From assembly GCF_044324785.1 (NCBI RefSeq), contig NZ_CP172127.1: a DNA stretch of 64,000 nucleotides. One strand, written 5' to 3'. Every line of letters begins with the position of its first letter. Position 1 is the stretch's first letter. The position numbers were made by a program. The stretch is from Escherichia coli. Lineage in GTDB: Bacteria > Pseudomonadota > Gammaproteobacteria > Enterobacterales > Enterobacteriaceae. This document shows, piece after piece, positions 1 through 21,000 of this stretch.

Positions 1-3000
1 CGAATGGGATATCAGGTACATCTTCCCAGGTAAAAATCGCCAGTACGCCTGGTAAACTTCTGGCTTGTTCATCATTAATACTTACGGCATAACCATGTGC
101 GATAGGGCTACGTACATATTTCGCGTAACACATGCCCGCCATAACATAATCGTCAGTATATCGTGCCCGCCCGGTGACCTTAGCAATGGCATCGACGCGC
201 ATGCAAGATTCACCCGTAGCGGTTGCTTCCCGCGCTTCCATAGAAATCCCCTCGATTTGAACATTTGGTTCTTATGGCAAAGATTTAGTCTAAGCAGGCA
301 AGATTTACGCCAGAAACGACGATAAGCGTTAGGGGAGGAAGGAAGTGTGATGACGTTAAAAAAACACAGATATGATACGAAACAGGACCCTGAATAGGGA
401 CAGTGATACGTATCAATATGAGTGGCGATAAAATCAATGTGATAAATCAGGATTATTACGCATCAGGATGGAAATAGGGTAAAAGTCAGGAACTTCGATA
501 CCTCTGCAGCGAATATTTTGCTGATGATACTTCCCTTTGCCAAATGAAATTAACCTCTTTCTCTATTACCGCGTTTTTCCAGAAGCAAGAGATTGGGTAT
601 CCAGAGGCTGGCTGCTATGATATGGCGTCTTGTTTTTTAAGCGAGGAAAGATTTTGAGTGCGGGACGCCTGAATAAAAAATCTCTGGGTATCGTGATGTT
701 GTTATCGATTGGACTGCTTTTGGCGGGCTGTTCGGGTAGCAAATCATCCGATACAGGAACGTATTCCGGCTCCGTTTACACCGTGAAACGGGGGGATACG
801 CTATATCGTATTTCGCGCACCACGGGAACCAGCGTAAAAGAACTTGCGCGACTGAACGGCATTTCACCCCCTTACACCATTGAAGTTGGTCAGAAACTAA
901 AACTGGGTGGGGCGAAAAATAGCAGTAGTACACGTAAATCAACCGCCAAATCAACGACCAAAACCGCATCGGTTACACCGTCATCAGCGGTACCGAAATC
1001 TTCCTGGCCGCCAGTAGGCCAACGTTGTTGGTTATGGCCAACGACAGGGAAAGTTATCATGCCGTATTCGACAGCTGATGGCGGCAATAAAGGGATTGAT
1101 ATCTCTGCTCCACGGGGTACACCTATTTACGCCGCGGGTGCAGGAAAGGTGGTGTATGTGGGCAACCAGCTGCGTGGCTACGGTAATCTCATCATGATTA
1201 AACACAGTGAAGATTACATTACGGCTTACGCCCATAATGACACGATGCTGGTAAATAATGGGCAAAGCGTGAAGGCTGGGCAAAAAATCGCCACTATGGG
1301 GAGCACTGATGCGGCATCTGTTCGCCTGCATTTCCAGATTCGTTACCGTGCTACGGCAATTGATCCGCTGCGTTACTTGCCGCCTCAGGGCAGCAAGCCA
1401 AAATGCTGATGGCGAATTAATCAGCAGTCAGCAGCGCGGCACTTGCTAAGGAGAGCGTAAGGTTTATAATGCCTTACGCATCTCGAAGCGGGCGTAGTTC
1501 AATGGTAGAACGAGAGCTTCCCAAGCTCTATACGAGGGTTCGATTCCCTTCGCCCGCTCCAAACAAACATTTCTCAACGTCTACTGAAGTCCATCAAATC
1601 CACGAATATCAAGCCTTTCAGCCATTTTCATAGCTTATTAACGTCTACTCACAACTACCAGAATCTACACACAGAAGTGTATAGTAATGCGTATAGGACA
1701 AAATTTATTTTTTGGAGCTATACACATGCTGCTTTCAGACCTTGCTATCAGGCGCGCGAAGCCGAAAGAAAAGGCTTATACACTCAATGACGGTAACGGG
1801 CTTTCGTTACTCATTGAGCCGAACGGCTCGAAAGGGTGGCGACTACGTTACAGATTTGCAGGAAAGCCCAAAATGTTGTCGTTGGGCGTGTACCCTGATG
1901 TGTCTCTGTCTGATGCCAGAGCGGCAAGGGATGAGGCTAAAAGGCTTCTTGCTGGTGGTATAAATCCAAGTGAGGCCAGAAAAGCTCAAAAGCGAGAACA
2001 GGCGAGCAAATTTGGCAATACTTTTGAGGGTATCGCTCGCGAATGGTATGAAAAGCGGATCGACAGGTGGTCATCGTCATACGCCGAGGAAATGATCGAG
2101 ACGTTTGAAAAAGACGTTTTTCCGTACATTGGCGGCAGGCCGATCGCAGAAATTAAGCCAATGGAGTTGCTTGCGGTTCTCTCCCGTCTTAATGACCGTG
2201 GGGCGACCGAAAAATTGCGTAAGGTTCGCCAGCGATGCGGCGAGGTGTTCCGGTACGCAATCATCACCGGACGCGCTGAATATAACCCCGCACCAGATCT
2301 GGCAAGCGCATTTGCTCCACACAAAAAAGAGCATTATGCCTATTTGAAGGCCGACGAACTGCCGGAATTTTTCCGCGTTCTTAATACGTACACCGGAAGC
2401 CAGATCGTCAAGCTGGGTATGCGATTATTGATTCTGACAGGGCTCCGGCCAGGGGAATTACGACAGGCAGAATGGCAGGAGATCGATTTTGATAATCGTT
2501 TGTGGGAAGTGCCTAAAGAACGAATGAAGATGCGCCGTCCTCATTGTGTGCCGCTTTCAGAACAGGCGATCGCTATTCTGGAACAGTTAAAACACATGAC
2601 GGGGCAGTATCAGTTTATTTTCCCTGGTCGAATCCAGCACAGTAAGCCGATGAGTGAAATGGCGATGAACGTGCTTATTCGTCGTATTGGCTATTCTGGG
2701 CGCGTTACTGGTCATGGGTTCCGGCACACGATGAGCACGATTTTACATGAGCAGGGCTATAACACCGCGTGGATAGAAACGCAGCTTGCACACGTTGATA
2801 AGAACTCAATTCGTGGCACGTACAATCATGCGCAATATCTGGACGGGCGGCGCGAGATGCTCCAGTGGTACGCCGACTATATGGACTCACTGGAACAGGG
2901 CGGCAACGTGGTGCATGGCAAGTTCGGAAAATGTGGATGACTGGTTGAGTATACAGTAGTAGACTTTGAGCGACGAAAGAAAAAGCTGTGTCTAGGGTCG

Positions 3001-18000: not shown

Positions 18001-21000
18001 ACCATTCTGGCTAACAAGGGATGGAGCAATGAGGACTGGGCCATCATGGCAGCGGCAGAACTCAGGCCGATGACTACTGCCGGGCATATGGGGATGACGC
18101 CAGACGCGATTTACGCTGTGCCCGATAACGTAATAGCCGACATTATGGCAGACCGTATTACCCGGATTCGTGCCGGGAGTGAAAAGGCACTGGCAGCCCT
18201 TGGAGATCTCCCTCCAGAACGCCTGAAACGGATGAAAGAAGCATTCGACGCTGAGGCTGAGCAGACCATCACGCGCATGATTCGTAATGCACGCGCTGAA
18301 GCAGCCCAGAAATTGCTGGGAATTACGCACGGTGAGATGACCAATGCTGTGACCACCGCTACGGGTATTGATACATATGCCCGTGATGATGCTGGCGAGT
18401 TAATGAAGAGCTTCATGCTCTTCAAAACAACCCCATTTGCTGGATTTCGGCAACTTGTTAACAGAACACGGGATTTGGACACCGTTCCGGCCATTAAATT
18501 TCTGGCCTCATATATCGGGGGAACAACTCTTGCTGGTATGTTTGCGATCCAGATGAACAGTTTGTTAAATGGTAATGATCCGCTGGATATGACAAAACCA
18601 ACCACATGGGTTCAGGCTTTACTGAAAGGTGGTTCGTTCGGTATCTACGGTGATTTTATTTTCCAGGACCATACGCAATATGGCTCCAGAATCGGTGCCA
18701 CTATGGGTGGCCCTGTGTTGAGCTTTGCAGAGCAGTTAACAAAATTACTGATTACTAACCCACAGAAGGCTCTACAGGGTGAAGAAACATCATTCGGTGC
18801 CGATGCACTGAAAACAGCCCGCATGATCACCCCATTCGCAAACCTGTGGTATGCGAAAGCGATAACCAATCACCTGATATTGCAACAACTTCAGGAGATG
18901 GCAAACCCTGGTTACAATGATCGAGTAAGGGACCGCGCGCAACGGGAGTTCGACATAACGAGTTGGTGGGAACCGGGTGCTATTGCGCCACGTAGAGCAC
19001 CGGATTTTGGAAAGGCGGTGGGGAACTGATGACGAGAGATAAAATTGAATATATTGCTTCTCTTAAATATGAAGCTGAGAAATGGAGAAGGATTGGCGGG
19101 TGGGGAACATTAATATCACTCTCTGCTTTACTTATAGACTCCTGGTTCAGACATATTGATGCAGCATCATTACTTTTTGAATCAGCAGTACTTGGTGGAT
19201 TCATTTGCTGTTGGGGTGGTAATTATGATCGGGCGTCCAAACATAAGAGAGAACTTGACGCGATATGTTTTGCTTTATTCGGTAAGGATTACGAAAGTTC
19301 TGACCTTGATATAATTGAATTCAACAAAACGGAACTATCGTGACATGTCACAGGCCGCTTTCGCGGCCTTGTTTTTAACGAATGCCACCGCCGCCCGGGC
19401 GGGAATTCGCAGATAAAAAAGCACGCTGCACGGTTTTATTAATACTTATACCATTAGGATTGATCCTTCAATGGACAATCCTTCCATCGTGTGGCCAGCC
19501 ATTCATATTCTTTGTCTTTTCTTCAGTATCGGCTTTGCATCTTCTACACCCTGAAAGATGTCGTTTTATGGTGTATCTGATGATTTATTCCCTAACAATA
19601 GATATTCGAAAAATTAATCAGTTAAAACAATTATTTGGATAATTTCAGGTAAAACTATCTTAATCTTCTGGTGGATCTCAATGCGTAGTGACGGTATCGG
19701 GATTAAGGGCGTGGATATTCGCGATATATGCCGCTACACCCCTCAACAGTAATAGATATGAGCTTTTCACGCTCTCCTTTCACTGCTGAGAACGGCAACA
19801 ACGTGCCACAGGAACGCGCTGTAATCGATTCTGACGCACTTAATTGCGTTGGGTAATGGTTTTTGCCAGCCTGTGGGGGTAACTCTGTTTTATGAGGCTT
19901 TGGCTATAGTGCAAAAATACACTTTGTCTTGCCTCTCAATTTGATGAGACTGGAACGACAACAGGACAGACCACCAGCAACAGTTACCGTATTCAGCCGT
20001 TCTGTGGCACCAGTGGAACTATCAACCCCTGCTTTCAGCAATGTGTTTGCGGGTTATTTTGGGGCGTTTGCGGGTTATTTGGGATGTTTTGCGGGTTATG
20101 TGATGCTTGAATAATGAACAGTGTATTTTGCAACATATTGATACTAAAGAACAAAAAATAGTTAGCATACTAAGATAACCCGGTAACCCGCATAACCCGC
20201 ACTGTTTTGTATATATATACGAAAAATTGCATTCAGGAGGGGGGGAGCGAAATCCCTACAATCCATTGCTTATGGGACCGCCCGCCTCGTCAAATTTTTA
20301 CACCCGCGAAATAAAAAAATACTTCACGCTGGTGGGCATGATGCTGATATGGGAGGCTTCCATAACGCCACCATTCGGAACTATGCAAATCTGCATAGAA
20401 AAGGGGATGCCTGATACAATACCCTCGCCCGATAAAATCACACCGATAAACTCATCTGCCACGAGTAGAAAGAGCGAACGAACCCGATACGCAGTAATGC
20501 TTGTCGGGTACAGCTTTTTAAGGCGGCTGTAGATATCAGGCCATCCGTGATCATCCACCAGCGAGATAGCCGATAACGATGACGCATAACCCTCAAGCGA
20601 GGGATAAATGTGTATAGAAATGTGTATAGAATTGATTTTAGAACTCGCAGGATTCGCGCTATTACTGGCCTTGTGTGATGTTGTATTGTTCCCTTCGCCC
20701 GCTCCAATTTATCTTCACCTCATCAACCTGTCATTTTTGTTGTATCTGATTTTCTATATTATCTTAATTCAATCGCTTCAGACTTTTCGCAATCGCCGAA
20801 ATACTTCCCCATTTTTTTGTAAATAAAAGCGTTTACGCAATGCAATCCATTTGTAACAACCCAGGTAAAATACCTTATTTTCAAGTTGTTAAATAAGTGG
20901 TTATCTACGCTTTTAACAAACGATTGATGGAATCTTTTATGAAAGGGAAATCTACATTAACTCTTCTGCTCGCTGGTATATTTTCATGCGGCACATGCCA

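Follow-up and report, generated by a model that had tools for sequence, protein, structure and literature searches.

Phage satellites are known to hijack their helper phages by resizing capsids, by redirecting the terminase or by building capsids of their own. Capsid-forming phage-inducible chromosomal islands (PICIs) bring genes for capsid, portal and terminase and rely on the helper for tails only, and P4 has its own external scaffold (Sid) and decoration protein (Psu); to our knowledge, neither is known to encode ejection proteins, and we know of no satellite described as bringing its own DNA-ejection proteins. Full-text literature searches returned no direct description of satellites with ejection or internal virion proteins, and this class of cargo is not recognised as such in the literature searched. 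Here we analyse a stretch of 64,000 nucleotides from Escherichia coli (contig NZ_CP172127.1 of assembly GCF_044324785.1; hereafter the window) in which an element of 19,145 bp occupies the tRNA-Gly gene glyU. By gene content and gene order, its backbone is an integrative Gram-negative PICI, closest to EcCIMP1, and comparison with phages and with other copies indicates that the place of its morphogenesis genes is taken by an ejection module of phage origin, which is under selection and differs from that of a co-resident prophage. Like capsid-forming PICIs and P4, such a satellite would make some virion parts and take the rest from its helper.

The closest described system, EcCIMP1 of E. coli MP1 (Pick, Stadel and Raivio, ISME J 2025), is a 19,963-bp PICI at a tRNA-Thr gene that excises only with its helper vB_EcoP_Kapi1, needs AlpA and is transduced by the P22-like Kapi1 (PMC11773190). 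It adds superinfection immunity against the helper, in lysogens only, with low transduction and no known defence system; its authors saw ORFs 017-019 as candidates for packaging and reported 'no phage-like structural genes' (PMC11773190). On re-reading this locus (L091 13481-18649), we find P22-type gp14, gp7, gp20 and gp16 downstream of the DUF927 primase, assigned to PHROG 651, 598, 917 and 770 ('head morphogenesis', 'DNA ejection', 'released upon infection' and 'DNA transfer protein') and respectively 83, 57, 26 and 24% identical to the proteins of Kapi1, a Lederbergvirus.

The glyU element resembles EcCIMP1 in size (about 19-20 kb), in its integration at the 3' end of a tRNA gene and in carrying an integrase, AlpA, AntA/AntB, DUF4222, an Icd-like gene, a DUF927 primase, an ejection block and also a PerC-family gene, the ejection block being a shared feature as defined in this analysis and not in the published paper. 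Amino acid identities amount to 66% for the integrase, 78% for AlpA, 75% for AntA and 62% for the primase. In both elements the block opens with a helper-like gene, and the genes after it encode proteins only about 25% identical to their helper counterparts, a divergence judged against a candidate helper for the glyU element and against the proven helper for EcCIMP1. They differ in that EcCIMP1 carries a P22-type block and has a Lederbergvirus helper, whereas the glyU element carries Uetakevirus gp15-gp17, without sequence similarity between the two blocks; in that the attachment (att) site is tRNA-Thr in the former and tRNA-Gly or yicC/dinD in elements of the glyU type; and in that EcCIMP1 is the one whose excision and transduction have been demonstrated experimentally. 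We read the two ejection blocks as analogous, not homologous.

With classic E. coli PICIs of the EcCICFT073 type (PMC6092414) the element shares integrase, AlpA, YlcI/YnfO, Icd-like, DUF4222, primase and single-stranded DNA-binding (SSB) genes, the late-operon leader, long genes running in one direction and the use of att sites that prophages do not use; two ordinary PICIs, one at rcnR/thiM in an ST131 strain and one at abgR/smrA, were included in the comparison. In the classic islands the leader is followed by a prohead-protease/capsid fusion and DUF1441 genes, and the helpers are cos-type lambdoid phages, whereas the glyU element has podophage ejection genes at that place, possesses extra antirepressor, ProQ/FinO and PerC genes and is about 8 kb larger. 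Set against the criteria for Gram-negative PICIs (Fillol-Salom 2018), the element has a specific integrase and an att site not shared with prophages, AlpA directly behind int with the other long genes oriented alike, its own primase gene and an origin (the latter predicted only), and no phage-derived genes other than gp15, gp16, gp17 and the gene in the gp18 position. Neither RefSeq nor PHROG assigns any capsid, terminase, tail, portal or lysis gene to it. The original prediction, which had described a satellite-like or plasmid-like element with a replication module, a cargo operon and no capsid, terminase or tail genes, is sharpened: the satellite-like half holds but not the plasmid-like one, the backbone being of the EcCICFT073/EcCIMP1 kind, and the lack of structural genes holds for capsid, terminase and tail but not for virion proteins generally, as ejection proteins are present.

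The phage-derived block, which stems from a Uetakevirus (an epsilon15/phiV10-like podophage), spans 11614-19413 (7.8 kb) and stands behind a PICI late-operon leader that is 88% identical to that of classic E. coli PICIs, where the capsid module comes next. At the left recombination junction, PICI homology reaches up to 11610 and phage homology starts at 11614, with a 20-codon chimeric stub open reading frame (ORF; 11585-11647) spanning the switch; an illegitimate, out-of-frame recombination has thus swapped the PICI capsid/packaging module for the phage block. Relative to epsilon15, DNA homology extends from the gp15 start codon to the gp17 stop codon at 76-79% identity; relative to an E. coli phiV10-like prophage it already sets in within the 3' end of gp14, 68 nt ahead of the gp15 start. 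On the right, the block ends with 75 nt (19339-19413) that match the terminator behind gp17 in E. coli Uetakevirus prophages at 98.7% identity. Outside 11614-19413 the element has no DNA homology to Uetakeviruses, and a search of deposited phage records found no satellite DNA, only the cargo matching Uetakeviruses.

In the Salmonella phage epsilon15, gp15-gp17 lie between the tail-tube genes gp11-12 together with the small internal virion proteins gp13-14 on one side and the tailspike gene gp20 on the other, and epsilon15 gp15 and gp17/16 have been cited as components of the injection apparatus (PMC12391199; for a review of podophage ejection proteins, see PMC8954989). The cargo proteins thus show what marks podophage ejection proteins, namely homology to virion-internal proteins encoded between tail-tube and tailspike genes. 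The block keeps the gene order and gene lengths of the epsilon15/phiV10-like operon but has been separated from gp11-gp14 and from every head, tail or lysis gene, belongs to a satellite that has an integrase and a replicon of its own, and has an orphan domain in the middle of gp16.

The gp15 homologue shares 80% amino acid identity with epsilon15 gp15 and contains a peptidoglycan-hydrolase domain (aa 249-403), as judged from domain matches in a sequence search of the PDB that was informative for this domain only. Its gene is a mosaic whose N-terminal two thirds are 90-99% identical at the nucleotide level to E. coli phiV10-like prophages and whose C-terminal third is of the epsilon15 type. The gp17 homologue is 89% identical to epsilon15 gp17 and 26.5% to phiV10 gp17. 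The gp16 homologue, for its part, reaches about 82% identity to epsilon15 gp16 at its two ends only, since the epsilon15-type middle is replaced by a central stretch of ~245 aa (14960-15712; GC content about 0.40) with a HEALH (HExxH) motif. This central domain has no match in Pfam or in a word-indexed protein search and is left uncovered by tblastn against phages; a HMMER scan of 1.84 billion representative proteins yielded only a 74-aa fragment, and a single-sequence AlphaFold model, with a confidence (pLDDT) of 41.7, was too poor for a fold search. The domain could be a satellite-specific injected effector. The small protein in the gp18 position shows no difference among the 7 copies recovered (PU-1 carries another gene there), has versions about 82-84% identical in the gp18 position of some Uetakevirus prophages and, by Kyte-Doolittle hydropathy, is the only one of the four with a strong predicted transmembrane helix, none being predicted in gp15, gp16 or gp17; it may act alongside the ejection module in exclusion or immunity. 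Cargo in the form of a defence system was considered and rejected, as PADLOC gave no match for gp15, gp16, gp17, the gp18-position protein, orf267, the primase or orf138, and NCBIfam gave none for the cargo.

The gp15, gp16 and gp17 genes (7.3 kb of coding sequence) are intact in 8/8 copies compared, and over these eight copies the ratio of nonsynonymous to synonymous polymorphism (pN/pS) is 0.30 for gp15, 0.016 for gp16 and 0.23 for gp17, beside 0.07 for the primase, values which indicate that they are held under purifying selection. At 96% identity or more, the cargo occurs in 36 genomes of the complete E. coli set; about half of the carriers have it at glyU and the other half at yicC/dinD, where the copies have a different integrase, a partly different left arm and a different gene at the place of the coiled-coil ORF (3063-3866), so that the same cargo travels behind two different integrases.

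A scan of IMG/VR with gp17 returned 54 prophage contexts, more E. coli satellite copies and a second, divergent satellite lineage (L059) from metagenomes, whose primase, SSB and integrase are 61, 70 and 80% identical to those of the glyU element and whose gp15 and gp17 are 74 and 87% identical, its gp16 being 81% identical to epsilon15 gp16. The sequence upstream of gp15 in this lineage is unrelated to that of the glyU element, i.e. the left junction is a different one. On one contig of this lineage (19,241 bp), the right arm, the core AGCCCTTCACCCGCTCCA, the left arm and the integrase follow one another in attP order, there is no tRNA gene and the two ends overlap by 45 nt, from which we take the contig to be an excised circle or a concatemer. 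When one genome per species (GTDB) was screened for an arrangement like that of the glyU satellite, three matches came back, all of them ordinary prophages. Ejection modules are placed downstream of the primase in three satellites, the glyU element and the divergent lineage (Uetakevirus type) and EcCIMP1 (P22 type), and their later proteins are unlike the helper's in the glyU element and EcCIMP1, which suggests a recurrent, selected strategy.

As to the helper, carriers were examined with a chimeric query made of the satellite gp17 and a Uetakevirus protease/capsid segment. A Uetakevirus capsid gene is found elsewhere in the genome in 25/36 carriers as compared with about 520/5,390 other genomes (about 10%), which corresponds to an odds ratio of 21 (p = 1.4e-17), a statistic that ignores shared ancestry. 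In E. coli AH19D088, for instance, the satellite shares the genome with a Uetakevirus prophage that is complete (39.7 kb), lies between guaA and yfgI and possesses terminase, portal, capsid, gp11-gp17, endosialidase tailspike and lysis genes. Satellite and prophage share only the 5' two thirds of gp15 (about 90% at the nucleotide level) and the terminator, and identity between their proteins is 29% for gp16 and 26.5% for gp17. An epsilon15-type gp17 match is seen in 0/25 co-resident prophages, each record yielding exactly two matching places, whereas E. coli prophages with such a gp17 are detectable by the same query at about 80% identity. Moreover, gp15 tracts in some satellite copies are 98-99% identical to a prophage, closer than they are to other satellites, thereby pointing to recent recombination with resident phages. 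On these grounds, we infer that a Uetakevirus prophage is the helper of the glyU satellite.

Two further observations concern this pair. An exact match of 18 nt, CAGAAATGGGTTGATGAC, is shared by the satellite gp17 gene (17086-17103) and the helper terL (L016 15106-15123), where about 0.02 such matches are expected by chance. The satellites with ejection modules measure 19.1, 19.2 and 20.0 kb and the helper genomes, proven or candidate, 39.4 kb (Kapi1, for EcCIMP1) and 39.7 kb (the AH19D088 prophage), which puts every one of these satellites near half the length of a helper genome, as against about one third for classic PICIs.

On balance, and with confidence that barely passes the even mark, we favour the interpretation that the glyU element is a PICI satellite whose Uetakevirus ejection proteins are loaded into helper capsids and confer their benefit at DNA entry. 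Under this scheme, induction of the helper would lead AlpA, the master activator in characterised Gram-negative PICIs (PMC6092414, PMC11773190), to turn the satellite on, whereupon it would excise and replicate from its iteron origin. It would be packaged as a concatemer in full-size helper capsids, two copies amounting to 38.3 kb against about 39.7 kb for the helper, and the ejection module would be expressed with the PICI late operon. The satellite-made proteins would be loaded into helper capsids, the helper-like N-terminus of gp15 providing the fit, while gp16, gp17 and the C-terminus of gp15, all heterotypic, would give the particle a conduit for DNA entry unlike the helper's. The most likely benefit would be injection into cells that exclude the helper's type of ejectosome, such as helper lysogens, which are the recipients that the satellite needs. 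In P22, escape from SieA exclusion maps to the ejection proteins gp16 and gp20, and P22 into which the HK620 ejection genes have been swapped is partially resistant to SieA (PMC10461980).

Several points weigh against this interpretation. The EcCIMP1 phenotype suits an exclusion role at least as well as delivery. The low identity (26-29%) of gp16 and gp17 to the helper's proteins makes their loading into helper capsids questionable. As many as 11/36 carriers have no detectable Uetakevirus capsid gene, and the co-occurrence could partly reflect shared ancestry or the place of the first recombination. Finally, the element has no terminase small subunit, DUF1441 or Rpp-like gene, and a search for pac-like or other sequence in common with the co-resident helper gave 28 shared 13-mers against 25 in shuffles, i.e. 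the chance level.

The main rival, which we hold to be unlikely though well worth weighing, is that the cargo serves exclusion or interference, the ejection proteins, with or without the small membrane protein, acting within the host cell or within helper particles to keep out the DNA of superinfecting Uetakeviruses or to poison helper virions through their mismatch, in which case the module would serve defence or interference and not delivery. PICIs in general interfere with their helpers (PMC6092414); EcCIMP1, with its analogous module, confers superinfection immunity in lysogens only and has no known defence system (PMC11773190), just as the glyU element proteins tested are without a PADLOC match; and the small membrane protein, identical in the copies recovered, travels with the block. 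Nevertheless, the EcCIMP1 phenotype has not been linked by anyone to its ejection genes, and three large proteins kept at full length under strong purifying selection, with a gp15 N-terminus refreshed by recombination, are what would be expected if they must assemble into helper particles. The leader (11280-11613), moreover, has no sigma-70 consensus promoter, which argues against constitutive expression in the lysogen. Delivery and exclusion are not mutually exclusive roles, and both may coexist.

That gp15-gp17 are instead a functionless hitch-hiker, the neutral scar of one accidental recombination, perhaps in a PICI in decay, its packaging module already lost, is already disfavoured and seems to us quite improbable. 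The left junction is indeed an illegitimate, out-of-frame fusion, elements of this kind are scored as incomplete by SatelliteFinder-type schemes (PMC11773190), orf138 is broken in some copies and all copies examined, at both att sites, have a frameshift in the PerC-family gene (in the window by translation, in eight others by RefSeq flags). A scar, however, would hardly preserve the 7.3 kb of coding sequence in all eight copies with pN/pS of 0.02-0.30, nor would it be expected at two att sites in 36 genomes, in a second lineage with a different junction and, as a non-homologous but functionally equivalent P22-type block, in the experimentally mobile EcCIMP1 (PMC11773190). Lastly, we give hardly any credence to a defective Uetakevirus prophage remnant or a P4-like satellite rather than a PICI: although the integrase is of the P4/CP4-57 type, three genes are phage-derived and SatelliteFinder is reported to confuse Uetakevirus prophages with PICIs (Hochhauser et al., PMC10121019), Uetakevirus homology is confined to the block, the terminase, portal, capsid, tail and lysis genes are missing, gene order and leader match classic PICIs, and no ORF bears the name Sid, Psu, Delta or Epsilon in the PHROG and RefSeq annotations (no search aimed at P4 profiles was made).

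A wider proposal, which we put forward tentatively and regard as rather doubtful, is that a group of podophage-parasitising enterobacterial PICIs have swapped capsid-remodelling genes for a complete heterotypic ejectosome, kept compatible with helper capsids by the helper-like N-terminal adaptor, re-arming helper particles and thus deciding which cells can be injected. Such an ejectosome could bypass prophage-encoded superinfection exclusion in helper lysogens, and would add to satellite-helper conflict a new layer in which the contest is over genome delivery instead of the size of the capsid or the specificity of packaging. The ejection module is a concrete candidate for what lies behind the unexplained superinfection immunity and the 'packaging' module of EcCIMP1; Uetakevirus prophages, common in extraintestinal and avian pathogenic E. 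coli strains (ExPEC and APEC), are likely PICI helpers; and satellite finders that treat such elements as incomplete miss a functional class.

The insertion itself, its boundaries and its empty site can be regarded as real, given an exact repeat, a contiguous empty site and the rarity of the element. The 19-mer TTCCCTTCGCCCGCTCCAA from the 3' end of tRNA-Gly(CCC) occurs exactly twice in the window, at the two ends of the element, whereas 100 shuffles contained no match even with 2 mismatches permitted. A query joining 400 bp of left flank to 400 bp of right flank, searched in complete E. coli genomes, recovered a single contiguous 800-bp match at 99.3% identity; the empty site (at least 80% in one place) is present in 3,392/5,426 genomes and the whole element (at least 80%) in only 25/5,426. 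GC content is 0.40-0.56 within the element against 0.34-0.42 in the E. coli type III secretion system 2 (ETT2) island beyond the right repeat. The original prediction had proposed, from the window alone, an integrative element at glyU bounded by an exact 19-bp tRNA-Gly repeat with an integrase just inside, richer in GC than ETT2 and additional to the usual E. coli gene order, and had suggested looking for the uninterrupted site; all of this is borne out, the insertion being extra relative to most E. coli, and every gene that it named (integrase, AlpA, the antirepressor-like gene, here AntA/AntB, BRO-N, primase/helicase, SSB and ProQ/FinO) is present. In AH19D088 (L013 22040-23600) the satellite at glyU is followed directly by yqeG without an ETT2 island, and hence the element occurs in backgrounds both with and without ETT2. 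The features of the element are collected in Table 1.

Table 1. Features of the glyU element and its attachment site (positions in the window; all long genes of the element lie on the + strand)
Feature	Position	Strand	Basis or remark
tRNA-Gly(CCC)	1488-1561	+	ARAGORN; sole tRNA in the window
attL core	1544-1562		At 3' end of the tRNA gene
Tyrosine integrase, P4/CP4-57 type	1726-2940	+	NCBIfam NF007246 (PRK09692-type), 329 bits; RefSeq homologue WP_001580988
int-alpA RNA motif	2985-3052	+	Rfam RF02996, 46.9 bits vs gathering score 35.8, E 4.4e-7
Coiled-coil ORF	3063-3866	+	No family match in profile searches
AlpA-family regulator	4094-4291	+	Pfam PF05930 (Phage_AlpA), 2.8e-19
AntA/AntB antirepressor-type gene	4367-5191	+	PHROG anti-repressor families, RefSeq names
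BRO-N antirepressor-type gene	5184-5741	+	PHROG anti-repressor families, RefSeq names
Small gene	5910-6107	-	RefSeq annotation of the 99.3%-identical SCU-105 copy
YlcI/YnfO-family small gene	6165-6362	-	RefSeq annotation of the SCU-105 copy
Icd-like gene	about 6568-6771	+	RefSeq annotation of the SCU-105 copy
Replication genes	6764-9449	+	orf85, DUF4222 and DUF927 genes
DUF4222 gene	7024-7326	+	
DUF927 primase/helicase	7323-9449	+	PHROG 1139 DNA primase, 4e-174; Pfam DUF927, 1.6e-46
SSB	9660-10082	+	
ProQ/FinO-like protein	10119-10616	+	
orf138	10597-11013	+	Not intact in all copies
PerC-family gene	11025-11250	+	Frameshifted
Intrinsic terminator	11252-11273		
PICI late-operon leader	11280-11613	+	Includes orf68 and first 26 nt of the PICI prohead-protease/capsid gene
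orf68	11379-11585	+	
Last 68 nt of Uetakevirus gp14 gene	11614-11681	+	
gp15 homologue, 843 aa	11682-14213	+	PHROG 992, 5e-291, full length
gp16 homologue, 686 aa	14213-16273	+	PHROG 1145, not full length
gp17 homologue, 918 aa (virion structural/ejection protein)	16273-19029	+	PHROG 684, 1e-294, full length
gp18-position small membrane protein, 104 aa	19029-19343	+	
Terminator	19352-19369		
Putative replication origin	20045-20230		GTTTGCGGGTTAT x3 at 21-bp spacing; inverted copies 20172-20201
Integrase arm-type repeats	20606-20629	+	AAATGTGTATAG twice
attR core	20689-20707		

At the right end of the element, the iteron array and an AT-rich palindrome (20199-20230) probably make up the satellite origin, a prediction from the repeat pattern; the divergent lineage L059 has an analogous iteron array with a different repeat, GTTGGTTCA, at 15440-15580. 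The arm motif AAATGTGTATAG also adjoins attL and recurs in the attP of L059. Minus-strand ORFs at 19640-20720, listed by RefSeq as hypotheticals, differ in length among genomes, in some cases cross attR and have an odd composition; we set them aside as non-coding and probably annotation artefacts over the origin/att-arm region. A 396-aa ORF at 5581-6771 is likewise spurious, overlapping the two small minus-strand genes and the Icd-like gene annotated by RefSeq. The PerC-like gene that is frameshifted here is intact in EcCIMP1, where it represses virulence genes of the locus of enterocyte effacement (LEE; PMC11773190). The late-operon leader is placed after an intrinsic terminator, the int-alpA RNA motif sits between the integrase gene and the next ORF, and the regulatory layout at 5910-6771 is the same as in classic PICIs.

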